Below are positions 37,083 through 43,912 of a stretch of DNA of 64,000 nt, piece by piece. Below the pieces are notes generated by a model. That model made no database searches. It worked only from the letters and a program-made list of their open reading frames with translations, and had not been told where the DNA came from. The position numbers and the translations under genes are program-made. Every line of letters starts with the position of its first letter. Position 1 is the stretch's first letter. This stretch comes from Roseibacillus sp. (GTDB taxonomy: Bacteria; Verrucomicrobiota; Verrucomicrobiia; Verrucomicrobiales; Akkermansiaceae), in assembly GCA_965242925.1 (NCBI GenBank), contig CBDEUM010000013.1:160001-224000 (forward strand), written 5' to 3'.

Positions 37083-39259
37083 TCACTTCTTTCGGAAGGC
37101 CTCCTTCTCCTTCCCCGGCCTGCTCTCCCCTTTTCCCAGCCCGGCCCGCTTCTTGAGCTCCTTGATCTGGTCCCGCAGGTGGGCTGCCCGCTCAAATTCC
37201 AGCCTGGTAGCCGCCTCCTGCATTTCCTGTTCCAGTTCACTCAGGACATTCACCGCATCGTAGAGTGAGGCCTCCTCGGCCACGAGGGAGCGATTGAGCT
37301 TCTCGGCCCGGCTCCTGTCATCCTGGTGCTGGTGCAGGCTCTTCTGCACCGCCCGCACCACGCTCTGCGGCGTGATGTTGTGCCGTTCGTTGTAGTCCTT
37401 CTGCCTGCCGCGGCGATACTCGGTCACATCGATGAGACGCTGGATGGAATCGGTCACCTGGTCACAGAACAGGACGCACTCCCCATTGATATGACGGGCC
37501 GCCCTTCCCGCGGTCTGGATCAGGCTGGTCTCGTTGCGCAGGAAAGCCCTCCTTGTCGGCATCGAGGATGCACACCAGGGAGACCTCGGGCAGGTCCAGT
37601 CCCTCCCGCAGCAGGTTGATCCCCACCAGGATGTCGAACTCCGCCGCCCGGAGCTGCCGCAGGATCTCCACCCGCTCCACCGCATCGATGTCGGCGTGAA
37701 TGTAGCGCACCTTCAGCCCGGCCCCCTGGAGATACTCGGAAAGATCCTCGGCCGTGCGCTTGGTCAGGGTGGTCACCAGCACGCGCTCACCCTTTTCAGT
37801 GCGCTGCTGGCACAGTTCGATGGTCGCGTCGATCTGGCCCAGCGAGGGGCTTGAGGGTGAGGACCGGATCGAGCAGGCCGGTGGGACGGATGATCTGCTC
37901 CACGATGAGGAGGTTTCCCTTCCGGGTCACATCAAATGCCTCCACCGGGTCCTCGGTGGGACTGGGCACGATGCGAAGCTGCCGCAGGCTGATGGGATCG
38001 ATCCCACGCTCCTTGTTCCCATGCACGGGAATACAGCCCTTGTTGTCCGGACGCGAATTGACCACCTCGAAGGGCCCCGGGGTGGCACTGACGTAGACAC
38101 GCTGGTTGGTAAGTTCCATGAACTCGTTGAACCGCAGCGGGCGGTTGTCGAGGGCACTGGGCAGGCGGAAGCCATGCTCAACGAGGGATTTCTTGCGGCT
38201 CATGTCGCCTTCATACATCCCGCGGATCTGCGGCACGCTGACGTGGCTCTCGTCCATGAGCACCAGGAAGTCGTCGGGAAAGAAATCGAGCAGGGTGTAG
38301 GGCCGCTCCCCCGGGGCCCGTCCCGTGATGTGCCGGGAGTAGTTCTCGATCCCCTGGCAGAATCCCATCTCCTGCATCATCTCGAGGTCATACTCCGTGC
38401 GCATCTTGAGGCGCTGGGCTTCGATGAGCTTGCCTTCCTTCTCAAAGAACTCGATCCGCTCCTTCATCTCGGCGCGGATCGCAATCATGGCGCGCTGCAT
38501 CTTTTCGGCCGAGCTGACAAACTGCTTGGCCGGGAAGAAGGTGTGCTTGTCGACCCGCTCGATCACCGCCCCGGTGAGAACATCAATGGTGGAAATCCGG
38601 TCCACTTCGTCCCCGAAGAACTCAACCCGGATGGCGGTGTCCTCGAGATAGGCGGGATGCACCTCCACCACGTCACCCCGCACCCGGAACTTTCCACGGC
38701 CGAAGGCGATGTCGTTGCGCTCAAAGAGAATGCCCACCAGCTGTCCCAGGAGCTCGTCACGCGCCAGTTCCTGCCCCTGCCAGACGGGGACCATCATCCC
38801 CTCGTAGTCGTCGGGCGATCCAAGGCCGTAGATGCAGCTTACCGAGGCCACCACCACGACATCCTGGCGGGTCAGGAGCGAACCCATCGTGCTCAATCGA
38901 AGGCGCTCGATCTCGTCGTTGATGGAGGAGTCCTTCTCGATGTAGGTGTCGCTGCGCGGGATGTAGGCTTCCGGCTGGTAATAATCGAAATAGCTCACGA
39001 AATACTCGACCGCATTGTGCGGAAAGAAGTTTTTGAACTCGGAGTAGAGCTGCGCGGCAAGGGTCTTGTTGTGGCTCATCACGAGGGTGGGCCTGCCCAT
39101 CCGCTCGATGACATTGGCCATGCTGAATGTTTTACCGGACCCCGTGACCCCCAGCAGGGTCTGGTGCGCATTGCCGGCCTCCAGCGACTTGACCAGTTTC
39201 TCAAAGGCCTGTTCCTGATCACCCTTGGCGCTGTAGTCGCTGACCAGTTGAAAGGACAC
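37083..39259 (-). CDS. uvrB: Excinuclease ABC subunit B (about 724 aa), interrupted by two +1 homopolymer indels (~37839 and ~37544)
   Basis: [56 protein letters not shown]-terminal FERAAHLRD spread over three frames. Confidence 0.95.
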
Positions 39260-39332
39260 GGGGCATTACTAGACCACCGTCACGGCATTGCAAACTCCGG
39301 GACCCCTGCCCTTGAATCCCCTGCATCTGTAC

Positions 39333-39383
39333 AAGCAAAGAGAGGCGCCACGGTTTTAGGATCTAAAACCCGGCGCCCCCCTT
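39333..39383 (-). terminator. Terminator-like hairpin closing the sigma-54 transcript
   Basis: Minus strand GGGGGGCGCCG-GGUUUUAG-AUC-CUAAAACC-GU-GGCGCC-UCUCUUUGCUU. Confidence 0.7.
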
Positions 39384-39737
39384 ACCTTGCCTTGTCAGTC
39401 GAATGAATGTCCGCTACCACCCGGACATATTCTGCTATGATTACCGGACAGGTAGTCAGCCTCTCCGGTAATGGCTGTTCGCCGACTGGACCGAGACCGT
39501 CCGCTCCCAACCCCTTGATGGCACACCCGGATTAGTGAACTGCGCCAGAGGTCAGGTCTGCGATCGGGCTCATCAAATGGCCCCGCCGTCGAAAATTCTT
39601 CAACTCCGCACCGGAAACCCGCTCCTCCTTCGTTCCTCCATCCCCGTTTGACGCCAAGGGTTTGCCCTGGCGTGGCGCAACGGTTCCGGGGATTCGTCAG
39701 GGCGGAGAGTTCCAGCATGTAATCTTTATGGAGTGAG
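39335..39737 (-). ncRNA. Candidate ~400-nt sigma-54-dependent structured non-coding RNA
   Basis: Bounded by a sigma-54 promoter and a terminator; stems at 39640-39693, 39440-39472 and 39407-39428; closing helices 39396-39401/39483-39488 and about 39602-39611/39701-39712; overlapping ORF is not protein-like. Confidence 0.6.
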
Positions 39738-39747
39738 AGGTTTTGGT

Positions 39748-39764
39748 TGCACAACCCGTGCCAA
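39748..39764 (-). promoter_or_regulatory. Sigma-54 (-24/-12) promoter
   Basis: Minus strand TTGGCACGGGTTGTGCA versus consensus YTGGCACG-N4-TTGCW: one mismatch, GG-N10-GC spacing intact. Confidence 0.85.
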
Positions 39765-39782
39765 CTTGGCCATCATGACTCT

Positions 39783-39795
39783 TAACTATTTGATA
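39783..39795 (-). promoter_or_regulatory. IHF-binding site
   Basis: Minus strand TATCAAATAGTTA is an exact WATCAA-N4-TTR match, within an AT-rich patch about 46-58 nt upstream of the predicted +1. Confidence 0.7.
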
Positions 39796-39853
39796 TCGTG
39801 CGTGTTGGAAATTTATTACGGAAACGTTAATATAATTTTCCACCCCTGGAATC

Positions 39854-39901
39854 CGGTAGTTCTTTCCGGGTTCAGCCTTTGCCAACTTGTAAGTTTTACC
39901 G
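39854..39901. promoter_or_regulatory. Paired putative enhancer (UAS) palindromes for a sigma-54 activator
   Basis: CGGTAGTTCTTTCCG (39854-39868) and TTGTAAGTTTTACCG (39887-39901), 33 bp apart, at about -117 to -164. Confidence 0.5.
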
Positions 39902-39989
39902 GGCCAACCGGCTCCCGCTGGGGAGCGGAGAACTCTGAGACCGGGCCCCTTGCCTCCGGGATTTCCGGGACCGGCGACAATAACCGGCC

Positions 39990-42059
39990 CTAGGAAACCA
40001 ATCCCATTTCGTGCAGGGCATACTCCACATCCGCGGGACGGAGGGGTTTGGGAAGATAGCCGTTCATCCCAGCCTTGCGACAGGTCTCACGGTCCGATTC
40101 AAGCACGTTGGCAGTCATCGCTATGATGGGAAGGTTGGCCGTGTTTCCGCCTCCCTGACCCGCCCGCACGAGACAGGCTGCCTCCACCCCGTCCACCTCC
40201 GGCATGTTCATGTCCATGAAGATGGCCTCGTAGTTCTGTCCCTGTTGCAGTTTCTCGAGCGCCTCGCGCCCATTGTCGGCGGTGTGTACCTGAAAGCCGA
40301 ACTTTGCCAGGATGAGAGTGGCGAGACGCGCATTGATCGGATTGTCCTCCGCCACCAGGATATAGCGGTCCCCGGCGGGCACGCATTCCTCCCCGGCATC
40401 GGGACTCAGGATCGGGCCGAGCGCCCGGAACATCTCCCGTTGCCGCACAGGCTTGAACAGGACCTGCCGATAACCTGCTGCCAGCGCGTGCTCCTTTTCC
40501 CCGCTCAACCGCGCGGAAGTGACGAGAATCATGGGCGGAAGCAGGGAGCCCGCGACCTCCGCCGCAAGACGGGCGAACTCCAGGCCGTCCATGGTGGGCA
40601 TCATCATGTCGCAGAAGATCACATCGTAGTGAACGCTGCCGAGTTGCCGCAGTCCGTGCTGGCCGCTCCCCACCACGTCGCTCTCCAGCCCCCACGAGAG
40701 CAGTCGCTTCTGCAGGAAGCGCTGGTTGATCTCGTTGTCATCGATGACGAGGGCCCGCTTGCCATGAAACTGCCCCTTGTCCTCGATCATCGCGAAGGGA
40801 CTGGATTCCCCCACTACAAGCGGAATGGTGAAACGAAACTCCGCTCCCTCTCCCATGTGCGAGGTGGCGCAAATTGTTCCACCCATGCGTTCCACCAGGC
40901 GTCTGCAGATGGCCAGGCCCAGCCCCGTGCCACCGAACTTCCTCGTGGTCGAGGCGTCCTCCTGCTGAAACGGCTCGAAGAGACTCTCCGCCTTGGACGG
41001 ATCAAATCCCACCCCGGTGTCGCGCACCGCAAGCTCAAGGAAGGGCCCCGGGACCACTCGGCCGTTCACGCTCACCACCCCCTTGGAGGTGAACTTGAGA
41101 GCGTTCGAGACGAGGTTGAGAAGAATCTGTTTCACCCGCGCCACATCCCCGACCACCACCTCAGGCGTTCCATCCATCATATCATAAGTGAGCTCGACAC
41201 CCTTCCCGGAGGCCTTGGCGGCATGGAGACCAAGCACTTCCTCGATGCAGTCGGTGAGTTCGAAGTCAACCTGTTCCAGGTCGAGGCACCCACTCTCGAT
41301 GCGCGAGAAATCGAGGAGGTCGTTGATGATGTTGAGCAGAAGGTCCCCACTCCGGTGGATGAGACCGAGATTCTCCCTCTGCTCTTCCGTGAGCTTGGAG
41401 TCGAGAAGCAACTCGGTGTAGCCGATGATCCCGTTGAGAGGGGTCCGGATCTCGTGACTCATCATGGCCAGGAACAGAGACTTGGCCCGCTCAGCCCGCT
41501 CCGCCTCCTCCTTGGCCAGGCTGATCTCCCTGACGGCCTTCACCCGTTCGGTGATGTCACGCACGATGCCGTGCACCAGGGTTCGACCCTCGTACTTCAC
41601 CCGGCCCCACACCACTTCCACCGGCAGGAGCGATCCATCCCCCCGCCGCAGCTGGGCCTCACTGCGGCTGTGTCCCGTGCGCTGAACATCGTTGAGAGCG
41701 GCCCCGGTCACCTGCCAGTTCATGAGCTGGGAGATGTACATCCCCCGCAGCTGCTCCCGCGAAAATCCGAACATGCGCACCGCGGTGTCGTTCACCTCCA
41801 TGAAGGCTCCGAAGCCGTCGAGCAGGATGATCCCGTCCACCGAGGCGTTGAAGAAGACCTTGAACTTTTCGTCGTCGCGACCCTGCAACTGCCAGCCCTG
41901 CTCCTGAGCACGGCGGCCAAGCTGCTCCTTCACGCGCGCGAGCTCCCCGGCAAATCCCTCAAGCTGCTGCTGGGCCTCGTGGCGAGCAGCCAGCTCGACT
42001 TCATAAAGCCGTCGCCATTCGGAGGCCTCGTCCAGGAGCTCGCGTTGGGCCTTCCTCAC
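39990..42059 (-). CDS. Cytoplasmic hybrid sensor histidine kinase (coiled coil-PAS-HisKA-HATPase-REC-REC)
   Basis: FLAMMSHEIRTPLNG, QILLNLVSNALKFT, DTGVG, GGTGLGL, two receivers (CDMMMP, MDMNMP); no TM segment. Confidence 0.93.
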   Translation of the reverse strand: MRKAQRELLDEASEWRRLYEVELAARHEAQQQLEGFAGELARVKEQLGRRAQEQGWQLQGRDDEKFKVFFNASVDGIILLDGFGAFMEVNDTAVRMFGFSREQLRGMYISQLMNWQVTGAALNDVQRTGHSRSEAQLRRGDGSLLPVEVVWGRVKYEGRTLVHGIVRDITERVKAVREISLAKEEAERAERAKSLFLAMMSHEIRTPLNGIIGYTELLLDSKLTEEQRENLGLIHRSGDLLLNIINDLLDFSRIESGCLDLEQVDFELTDCIEEVLGLHAAKASGKGVELTYDMMDGTPEVVVGDVARVKQILLNLVSNALKFTSKGVVSVNGRVVPGPFLELAVRDTGVGFDPSKAESLFEPFQQEDASTTRKFGGTGLGLAICRRLVERMGGTICATSHMGEGAEFRFTIPLVVGESSPFAMIEDKGQFHGKRALVIDDNEINQRFLQKRLLSWGLESDVVGSGQHGLRQLGSVHYDVIFCDMMMPTMDGLEFARLAAEVAGSLLPPMILVTSARLSGEKEHALAAGYRQVLFKPVRQREMFRALGPILSPDAGEECVPAGDRYILVAEDNPINARLATLILAKFGFQVHTADNGREALEKLQQGQNYEAIFMDMNMPEVDGVEAACLVRAGQGGGNTANLPIIAMTANVLESDRETCRKAGMNGYLPKPLRPADVEYALHEMGLVS

Positions 42060-43411: not shown

Positions 43412-43573
43412 TTAGGATATCTTAACTATTCCTGCGGGAGATGCCCACCACAATTTCCCCGGCCGTAATGGCCTGATCCCCCGGAAATCTGCCCGTTCTC
43501 CGCGAAAGGGCTCCCCTTGATCCACCCGCCTCTTACTCTTTCCCCGCGGCCCCCTGGTCCGTATGGTGTCCGC

Positions 43574-43912
43574 GTGGCCCTTCTCGATCCTGTCCAACTC
43601 GACGCCATGGCCTCCGGCAGGCCCGAACTCCTCCTGCCGATCGTGAGCGACTTTGAAATGCACGGGCGCGGACAGTTGTCGAACCTGCACGCTGCCCTCA
43701 CCCAGGGCCGCCTTGAGGACGGCAAGAGCATCCTCCATCAACTCAAGGGCGCCTCCGGCACCATGGGCATGATCCAATTTCAGGAACTCTGCCGGGAATG
43801 CGAGGAAGAGCTGACCACCGGCCAGATCCCTCCCCGCCTTGCGGAACTCGGCCCCCTCCTCCTCGAATCGGTGGCCGGAGCCAGCGCCCACCTCCGGGGA
43901 GAAGTCTCTTAG
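43574..43912 (+). CDS. Stand-alone Hpt phosphotransfer protein
   Basis: LHQLKGASGTMG Hpt motif, LCRECEE; divergent from the regulator; start placed at GTG 43574. Confidence 0.88.
   Translation: MALLDPVQLDAMASGRPELLLPIVSDFEMHGRGQLSNLHAALTQGRLEDGKSILHQLKGASGTMGMIQFQELCRECEEELTTGQIPPRLAELGPLLLESVAGASAHLRGEVS

Follow-up and report, generated by a model that had tools for sequence, protein, structure and literature searches.

A candidate translated regulatory RNA behind a sigma-54 promoter in Roseibacillus

Why would a reading frame be kept open across related bacteria when the amino acids it encodes seem free to change? The question is raised by a transcript of about 400 nt on the minus strand of a 64-kb stretch of Roseibacillus DNA (the window, whose positions serve as coordinates throughout; the source genome, G000, is 89.9% complete). 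The transcript lies in a 730-nt intergenic gap between a hybrid histidine kinase gene and uvrB (start 39259), and an earlier note, made from the letters alone, had taken it for a non-coding regulatory RNA. The reading that we favour, and to which we give an even chance, is that of a translated regulatory RNA: a sigma-54-dependent transcript whose first two thirds would be translated, or at least under selection to remain translatable, and whose last third would function as RNA. Selection appears to keep the open reading frame (ORF) open and in register while being indifferent to the encoded amino acids. The nearly invariant 3' module, about 140 nt long, holds hairpin a, hairpin b (loop GGUGGUAG), a terminator and, between the latter two, the single-stranded tail UUCGACUGACAAGGCAAGGUAAGG with the stop codon in it. 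Translation may protect or unfold the RNA in cis, or may make a compositionally tolerant disordered peptide. Coordinates of all features are collected in Table 1.

The open frame and its codons

Across a deduplicated set of 31 distinct homologous sequences, the frame is open from a conserved AUG in every one, over 104-118 codons in 30 and over 83 in the variant L042. This AUG lies 19 nt from the inferred 5' end and is invariant amid a variable 5' end, and the frame closes with a UGA inside CGACUGACAAGG or, in 8 sequences, with UAA or UAG three codons earlier. Length changes respect the register: the AUG and hairpin b are 288, 291, 294, 309, 324 or 327 nt apart, each divisible by three, in 30 of the 31 sequences. 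Stop codons are avoided in frame 0, which has 1 distinct stop-bearing alignment column (3 codons before the end) against 25 in frame +1 and 23 in frame +2; codon changes involving a stop number 0, 34 and 33 in the three frames over 16 pairwise comparisons. From position-specific composition, 2.4-3.7 frame-0 stops would be expected per sequence, the probability of finding none being 0.02-0.09 for each. Kinship among the homologues makes the stop and indel counts look more independent than they are; some eleven lineages are nonetheless separated by a synonymous divergence (dS) above 0.3-1 in uvrB, and the open-frame signal is strong.

No Shine-Dalgarno sequence precedes the AUG. Of 1305 crudely called gene starts across the genome, 16.9% are preceded by a Shine-Dalgarno-like 4-mer, and in a control window the figure is 19.2%; with no enrichment genome-wide, the missing motif is uninformative and no objection to translation. 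As an observation in its own right, the same scan of crude gene calls suggests that initiation in this organism is largely independent of Shine-Dalgarno sequences.

The substitutions within the frame tell of a different kind of constraint. The ratio of nonsynonymous to synonymous rates (dN/dS) is 0.16-2.2 within groups (where both rates exceed zero) and 0.39-1.12 between groups, and changes fall evenly over the codon positions (for example 4, 11, 4 or 25, 26, 24). For the same genome pairs, the first 200 codons of uvrB, taken as a control, give a dN/dS of 0.00-0.05 and change almost only at third positions (for example 0, 1, 21). Frame 0 is not distinct from the other two in the synonymous fraction of changed codons (0.22, 0.18 and 0.21 in the three frames) or in the mean BLOSUM62 score of the changes (0.34, 0.13 and 0.34), and columns that conserve a residue through synonymous variation number 7, 2 and 5. 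The GC content by codon position is 0.61/0.62/0.55 in the ORF, 0.68/0.40/0.79 in the kinase gene and 0.63/0.37/0.82 in uvrB. Overall, the ORF has diverged in its nucleotides at roughly 0.3-0.7 of the synonymous rate of uvrB, so constraint exists, but at the nucleotide level.

The product itself has no match in Pfam and no usable match in the protein atlas, and a profile built from 30 products found, among 1.84 billion representatives, only six full-length members, all of this same family. AlphaFold2, given the 30-sequence alignment, predicted no secondary structure (predicted local distance difference test, pLDDT, 53.5; predicted template modelling score, pTM, 0.10). Could the ORF nonetheless be an ordinary, fast-evolving gene for a disordered small protein of about 107 amino acids, possibly born de novo in the genus, with 3' hairpins, tail and terminator that serve only in cis, in stabilising the mRNA, in termination or in the control of translation? 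Such a gene would show an open frame, length changes that keep the register and an invariant AUG, as seen here; the gene callers of some assemblies do call it, yielding the six representative proteins of 103-115 aa; a few columns keep their residue through several synonymous codons (Ser through 4, Ala through 3); and in other genera the equivalent promoter beside kinase homologues serves ordinary protein genes. We nevertheless hold this gene to be somewhat unlikely. No selection on amino acids is detectable, with dN/dS near 1 and synonymous fraction and BLOSUM scores like those of the other frames, the 7, 2 and 5 conserved-residue columns are not distinctive, and the codon GC signature, a predicted fold and relatives are all lacking.

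The opposite possibility, that of a purely non-coding regulatory RNA acting by base pairing or protein titration with its frame untranslated, is what the earlier note had proposed. It would agree with the lack of any Rfam, Pfam or fold match, with the structured 3' domain, with RNA-like composition and substitutions that put equal constraint, at the above fraction of the neighbouring synonymous rate, on all codon positions, and with a sigma-54 promoter beside its own two-component system that recalls Qrr and GlmY. The avoidance of stops in one frame only, the six distinct lengths that all stay in frame and the invariant AUG would then lack an RNA-level explanation; the 5' domain is without thermodynamic or comparative support, and neither CsrA nor Hfq was found in the genome. 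We regard a purely non-coding RNA as quite unlikely. The proposal of a regulatory RNA has thus held for the structured domain and not for its non-coding character, and the ORF at 39395-39718, which the earlier note had itself named as what could overturn it, gives a divided answer: its frame is conserved in 31 of 31 homologues without a codon-type pattern of substitution.

The 3' RNA module

Folded as a whole, 411 nt of sequence reach a minimum free energy of -175.5 kcal/mol (z = -4.17), equalled by 0 of 100 shuffles. The 5' 254 nt alone have a z of -0.69 in the window sequence and of -3.6 to +1.0 across 12 representative homologues, falling below -2 in 3 of the 12; the fold signal of the whole RNA comes from its 3' part. 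There, three helices (hairpin a, hairpin b and the terminator, 36 pairs in total) are paired in 92.7% of the cells of an alignment of 30 sequences (22 distinct), against 47-52% when the partners are slid; 11 of the 36 pairs change on both sides, and the observed covariation was reached by 0 of 500 shuffles.

Each element of the module has its own mark of constraint. In hairpin a, the loop CUGACUA (39453-39459) has an invariant UGACU core, read as Asp-Tyr or Asp-Phe in the ORF, and the pairs of the stem are kept while the encoded residues change non-conservatively (ITGEADYLSG, AGKNDFLPG, FADRTDYPAG). In hairpin b, both compensatory pairs fall on third codon positions and the GGUGGUAG loop is fully identical in 30 of 30 sequences. 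The terminator stem covaries from GGCGCC to GGCACC or GGUGCC; an imperfect T-run explains why a simple scan left it unflagged. Invariance extends to synonymous sites and to the 20 nt past the stop codon, even in lineages with a uvrB dS above 1, and the tail at 39383..39406 is a candidate effector or seed region. RNA constraint, as the alignment has it, is visible directly within the last 26 codons of the ORF. Both the stem of hairpin a, with its pairs kept and its residues exchanged, and the invariant single-stranded stretch of 20 nt past the stop, which exceeds what a terminator needs, speak against a small-protein gene whose RNA works in cis only.

How much of the multi-domain architecture described at the outset survives the comparison? 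Every string quoted in the earlier note is present on the minus strand of 39335-39737: CUCCGC/GCGGAG, AUCCCCG...CGGGGAU, ACGCCAGGG-CAAA-CCCUUGGCGU and the GGA-rich run, as well as AUUACCGGA.../...UCCGGUAAU, AUGUCCG/CGGACAU, CAGUCG/CGACUG and the terminal GC hairpin. The two 3' hairpins and the terminator are upheld by covariation; the 5' domain and the CAGUCG/CGACUG stem are lineage-specific. The four helices of that description outside the module are paired in 59.7% of cells over 24 sequences (73, 51, 58 and 59% helix by helix; 36-43% with slid partners), an excess that would arise in any case, since one of the aligned rows supplied the structure. Compensatory pairs number 0 in the CAGUCG/CGACUG stem: 5 of the 6 pairs deviate solely by unpaired cells, and its 3' arm is invariant while its 5' arm varies without compensation.

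RNAalifold on the full length recovers the 3' helices and suggests a possible extension of hairpin b (UAG..GAA with UUC..CUG) that involves invariant columns only. It also draws a middle hairpin (columns 154-181), weakly supported in that its changes are mostly one-sided GC/GU exchanges. Three further structural candidates were set aside: a 4-bp pairing of the AUG with the tail, drawn by RNAalifold on almost invariant and hence uninformative columns; a pairing of the pyrimidine-rich 5' leader with the purine cluster or the tail, which did not outdo that of shuffled leaders in any of 12 lineages (0.05-0.85 of the shuffles matched or exceeded it); and tRNA-like loops, in which GGUGGUAG resembles a D-loop and UUCGAC a T-loop, with no T-arm stem and a negative ARAGORN result.

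No known family was recognised. Across the whole 64-kb window there were 0 Rfam matches at the gathering score, Qrr (RF00378), GlmY/GlmZ, CsrB/Rsm, 6S, tmRNA, RNase P and signal recognition particle RNA included; a permissive search of 39200-40050 gave only chance-level matches (E 0.79 and 0.87), and ARAGORN found no tRNA or tmRNA. In this respect, a discrete, conserved transcript of about 400 nt outside the known families, the earlier note was right.

Promoter, proposed working and known systems

A sigma-54 promoter, as read from the sequence, stands ahead of the transcript. A TGGCAC-N6/7-TGC motif stands at a fixed distance upstream in 53 of 53 motif-bearing loci (31 distinct RNAs), and with the C of the -12 GC taken as -12 the start falls on 39737, the very end that the earlier note had given to its RNA. 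Three GTAAA..TTAC palindromes and an IHF-like site are kept across 28 distinct upstream sequences; the block TATCAAATAGTTA fits the IHF consensus, WATCAANNNNTTR, in a comparison by eye. A simple scan for promoters and terminators returned 0 and 0, covering sigma-70 promoters and strict T-runs only. Marine RNA libraries contain the transcript as well: in a k-mer index, 15 runs contain 26-57% of the sampled words of 39300-39800, and three runs from different studies each yield one contig inside the transcript (39406-39725, 39376-39590 and 39391-39585) with the neighbouring genes uncovered; contig ends and uncovered parts are not read as transcript ends. The transcription unit is genuine, running on the minus strand from an inferred start near 39737 to about 39336.

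What drives this promoter? The gene next upstream of the kinase encodes an NtrC-type activator with receiver, AAA+ sigma-54 interaction and HTH_8 domains in Pfam, and its end overlaps the kinase gene start. The genome encodes rpoN and four full-length sigma-54 activators, and among relaxed sigma-54-like sites genome-wide (n = 53) a GTAAA..TTAC motif lies upstream of just one, which is this promoter. A second TGTAAATTTTACA palindrome, at C29:233057, was considered as a further target and dropped, with no sigma-54-like promoter nearby. Full-length homologues of the kinase (41-50% identity) occur in five other genera, and a sigma-54-like promoter follows the kinase homologue in 3 of the 15 loci examined there, from two genera: G092 and G109 (kinase 50% identical) and G052 (43%). 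TGTAAA..TTACA-type palindromes lie upstream of all three promoters, most clearly in G109 and G052, and support, by inference, the adjacent activator as the driver of the promoter. The transcript is thus probably a direct, local target of the adjoining NtrC-type regulator and hybrid kinase, and the regulator's type of site seems older than its Roseibacillus target. The three promoters in other genera drive ordinary genes whose products have a signal-peptide-like N-terminus. A homology between these secreted proteins and the ORF product was looked for and rejected (BLASTP E at least 0.1, hmmsearch E at least 0.3). On the loci themselves we note that they are L097 and L098 (genus g28) and L106 (genus g31), with the palindromes clearest in L098 and L106, and that one promoter-driven protein has a DVSGSVD motif, which we take to be vWA-like.

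Table 1. Features of the locus, in window coordinates
Feature	Position	Strand	Remarks
Transcript, ~400 nt	39336..39737	-	5' end inferred 12 nt past C of -12 GC; 3' end after terminator
ORF, 107 codons + UGA	39395..39718	-	Invariant AUG; frame open, amino acids apparently unconstrained
Hairpin a	39440..39472	-	Inside ORF; helix 1, 7 of 13 pairs change on both sides
Hairpin b, AUGUCCG/CGGACAU, loop GGUGGUAG	39407..39428	-	Inside ORF; helix 2, 99.4% paired, 2 compensatory pairs
Conserved tail UCAUUCGACUGACAAGGCAAGGUA	39383..39406	-	Invariant from GACUGACAAGG on in 30/30 aligned; stop codon 39395-39397 inside
Intrinsic-terminator hairpin AGGGGGGCGCC...GGCGCCUCUCUU, then UUGCUUGU	39339..39382	-	Helix 3, 98.8% paired, 2 compensatory pairs
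Sigma-54 -24/-12 promoter TGGCACGGGTTGTGC	39749..39763	-	TGGCAC-N5-nTGC at -26..-12
IHF-like site TATCAAATAGTTA	39783..39795	-	About -58..-46; read in sequence and alignment
Upstream site 3 CCGTAATAAATTTCC	39807..39821	-	-84..-70; CGTAGTAAATTTAC in other lineages
A/T block ATTATATTAAC	39826..39836	-	-99..-89; nearly invariant, 28 distinct upstream sequences aligned
Upstream site 2 CGGAAAGAACTACCG	39854..39868	-	-131..-117; family consensus TGGTAAAAnCTACC, from alignments
Upstream palindrome 1 GGTAAAACTTACA	39888..39900	-	-163..-151; family consensus TGTAAAAyTTACA, alignment block; candidate activator site
Hybrid histidine kinase, 689 aa	39990..42059	-	Pfam PAS, HisKA, HATPase_c, two receiver domains
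NtrC-type sigma-54 activator, 451 aa	42056..43411	-	Pfam Sigma54_activat 5.7e-69, Response_reg 1.3e-27, HTH_8 1.3e-09

How might a translated regulatory RNA work here? A signal on the kinase would lead to phosphorylation of the activator, which together with IHF would drive sigma-54 transcription; translation would next proceed across the entire 5' two thirds and end in the tail. It is the transit of the ribosomes that would count, either by shielding the long unstructured 5' part from Rho (which the genome encodes) or from RNases, so that the 3' module gets made, or alternatively by opening hairpins a and b. The 3' module would be the effector; it would pair, or bind a protein by way of its CUGAC and AAGG repeats, whether as part of the full-length RNA or once released as a 3'-end fragment. 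The analysis shows the architecture of the promoter, the synteny, the structured module, the frame that is open with its amino acids unconstrained, and the occurrence in RNA libraries; that the frame is translated, to what end, and what the 3' module acts on are parts of the proposal that we infer. A more specific version, which we consider unlikely, is a translation-gated riboregulator whose 3' effector is made or activated only when ribosomes traverse an unconstrained spacer ORF of about 107 codons, coupling output to translation capacity; the ORF would then be solely a ribosome track, serving as a shield against Rho or RNases or as an unfolding device.

Several results weigh against a translated regulatory RNA. 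The evidence for translation is all comparative, and the RNA-library data are assembled contigs, which show presence and not ends, strand or level. A fourth run, from an oligo-dT library, gives three contigs over the whole 801 nt with the flanking genes at equal depth, a signal that may be DNA carry-over. A word-indexed protein search found no gene-caller product for the ORF, and the recognition score of a protein language model is 1911, within the range typical of shuffled sequences (by the tool's own account, a mark of 2300 is reached by 91 of 100 proteins of known families and by 9 of 100 shuffled or reversed ones). The metagenome variant L042, on a 63-kb contig, has a frame-shifting internal deletion of 85 nt in mid-transcript; its promoter and 3' domain are intact, and its frame of 83 codons still begins with the shared AUG and reaches a UAA in the tail. 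The diverged homologue in G007, described below, has CUG at the position of the AUG, and its start would need the next GUG; that GUG, one codon later, opens an 82-codon frame with the hairpin loop in the same register (Asp-Tyr), a frame which in a high-GC genome is not significant on its own. Finally, no partner or target of the 3' module emerged from searches for CsrA, Hfq and complements of the tail: neither CsrA nor Hfq has a Pfam match in the genome, at its stated completeness, and no perfect complement of at least 12 nt to the tail occurs elsewhere in the genome, shorter seeds being indistinguishable from chance. Titration of CsrA and Hfq-dependent pairing, to which the earlier note pointed in its advice to look for csrA and hfq, thus have no visible partner. 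The GGA cluster is neither conserved in sequence nor displayed in conserved loops.

Which known regulatory RNAs does this one resemble? In Vibrio, qrr1 sits beside luxO, and elsewhere glmY sits beside glrK. Qrr (Vibrio; LuxO/sigma-54; RF00378) and GlmY (GlrK/GlrR/sigma-54) likewise combine a sigma-54 promoter, activator sites, an IHF-like site and an adjoining two-component system, in our case as predicted from the sequence, and the Qrr comparison made at the outset, size difference included, has stood up. They differ in being of about 100-180 nt against about 400 nt here and in having no sequence or structure match to this RNA, which for its part has a conserved open frame and a genome in which no Hfq was found. 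On the Qrr/GlmY type of arrangement, a sigma-54-dependent small RNA (sRNA) beside its own two-component system, compare PMC4152352.

A second likeness is to sRNAs cut from the ends of mRNAs. GlnZ derives from the 3' untranslated region of the sigma-54-dependent glnA mRNA (PMC9731577), and CJnc230 of Campylobacter is cited as an sRNA derived from the 3' untranslated region of a sigma-54-dependent mRNA (PMC11187230). The likeness lies in an activator- and sigma-54-driven, apparently translated transcript whose most conserved 3' end starts at the stop codon and shares the terminator, and the difference in a parent ORF that here encodes no conserved protein and an RNA module that reaches 80 nt into it. 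The 3' end is sRNA-like, with a single-stranded conserved stretch and a terminator hairpin. The dual-function sRNAs SgrS/SgrT, RNAIII/hld and SR1/SR1P likewise put an ORF and an RNA-level regulatory part into one short transcript; their peptides are short and conserved in sequence, whereas here there are 104-118 codons without amino-acid constraint. For SR1, both functions are called 'remarkably conserved' in PMC3526287. The 3' RNA part of our transcript is conserved beyond coding needs and shares the terminator, as dual-function and 3'-end-derived sRNAs require. The CsrB, RsmY and RsmZ sponges, in turn, recall the purine-rich GGA/AGG cluster in mid-RNA and the AAGG repeats in the tail; they part from it in that no CsrA gene was found here, the GGA cluster is unconserved, the conserved loops are CUGACUA and GGUGGUAG, and the promoter is of another type. 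To judge from these comparisons, the RNA has a promoter logic and neighbourhood like those of Qrr and GlmY and a layout like that of GlnZ-type and dual-function sRNAs, and appears to be a member of none of these groups.

Our literature search turned up nothing on a sigma-54-dependent RNA in Verrucomicrobiota, whose regulatory RNAs are, to our knowledge, almost unstudied; nor are we aware of any description of an ORF that is open and unconstrained. The locus is a compact module of sensor kinase, activator, one sigma-54 promoter and one transcript, in a marine genus that turns up in many ocean metatranscriptomes, and it has an unusual evolutionary signature in which the ORF is detectably constrained only in its start, openness and frame and is fused to an invariant structured RNA. 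If translation itself is what is selected, this would be a clean natural case of ribosome transit put to use in regulating or protecting a trans-acting RNA, and a caution against calling sequences coding or non-coding by ORF conservation alone. If the product is instead a functional disordered protein, it would be a well-documented genus-restricted and possibly de novo gene within an sRNA-like transcript.

Distribution and gene neighbourhood

The element appears limited to one Roseibacillus clade. By DNA similarity it occurs in 15 of 19 other genomes of the genus, while 21 genomes of other genera in the order gave only a 30-nt match at chance level. The exact 22-mer of the tail is found in 15 GTDB genomes, each of which bears the label Roseibacillus, Akkermansiaceae or Verrucomicrobiales/-ae; genomes with the tail motif are all marine metagenome-assembled genomes, a 21-mer of the tail occurs in 22 metagenome contigs, and the motif was matched in 0 viral contigs. 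R1, a covariance model built on the 3' domain and run on 151 genomes of the family, matched in 12 of 15 genus genomes and in the window's own. In the 135 genomes of 19 other genera it found nothing convincing, the two marginal matches, in another genus, having E values of 0.01 and 0.04 and one of them covering the terminator only. Within its own genome the element is single-copy by DNA similarity, and the paralogous copies that the earlier note had suggested looking for did not appear. Second matches in G019, at first candidates for paralogues, represent one locus assembled on both contig C16 and contig C115; the kinase matches there are near-identical, both 81% identical to the query, and the doubling looks like an assembly duplicate.

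Four genomes of the genus lack a DNA match. G002 and G015 (88% and 86% complete) also lack the 5' end of uvrB in their assemblies, and in G017 the DNA ahead of uvrB and the DNA that follows the nearest kinase gene are both unrelated. The fourth, G007, belongs to the same GTDB genus and its kinase is 65% identical; it carries a diverged homologue at L082:2953-3318 (G007:C37), behind the orthologous kinase: a TGGCACGCGAACTGC promoter about 165 nt past the kinase gene, followed by a region of about 340 nt that holds a UUGACUA-loop hairpin, a UUCGAC motif, a GGUACGGAAGG stretch and a terminator with a GGCGCC stem. R1 missed this homologue, so the family is wider than R1 shows, and more distant relatives may be missed too.

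In 16 of 16 genus loci examined, the kinase is syntenic with the RNA and the RNA lies between kinase and uvrB. Such constancy, the RNA preceding uvrB by 75 nt and sharing its strand at each of these loci, raises the question whether it could be a cis-acting leader or attenuator that controls uvrB. The RNA ends in a conserved, covarying terminator, and a separate conserved block, GGAGTTTGCAATG, stands between that terminator and uvrB; the G007 homologue is on a different contig from uvrB and not adjacent to it, the DNA upstream of uvrB in that genome being unrelated; and the three RNA-library contigs confined to the transcript stop short of uvrB, which is weak evidence in the same direction. 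A leader of uvrB is on these grounds very improbable.

Three minor observations concern the neighbouring genes. Immediately 5' of the activator gene and in the same orientation is a 159-aa ORF without a Pfam match (43412-43891, minus strand), preceded by the gene of a 902-aa cytochrome-c/DUF6797 protein; the 159-aa ORF may be a further member of the activator/kinase operon. The uvrB gene looks broken in the window, with the N-terminal domains in a 487-aa ORF (37796-39259, minus strand) and the UvrB and UVR C-terminal domains in a separate 200-aa ORF (37083-37685, minus strand), against open frames of 723-764 aa in relatives; the split is a frameshift or an assembly error around 37685-37800. 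Lastly, a conserved block CCGGAGTTTGCAATG at 39275-39300 (minus strand), about 20-40 nt 5' of the uvrB start, recurs in most loci of the genus and may be a promoter or operator of uvrB.

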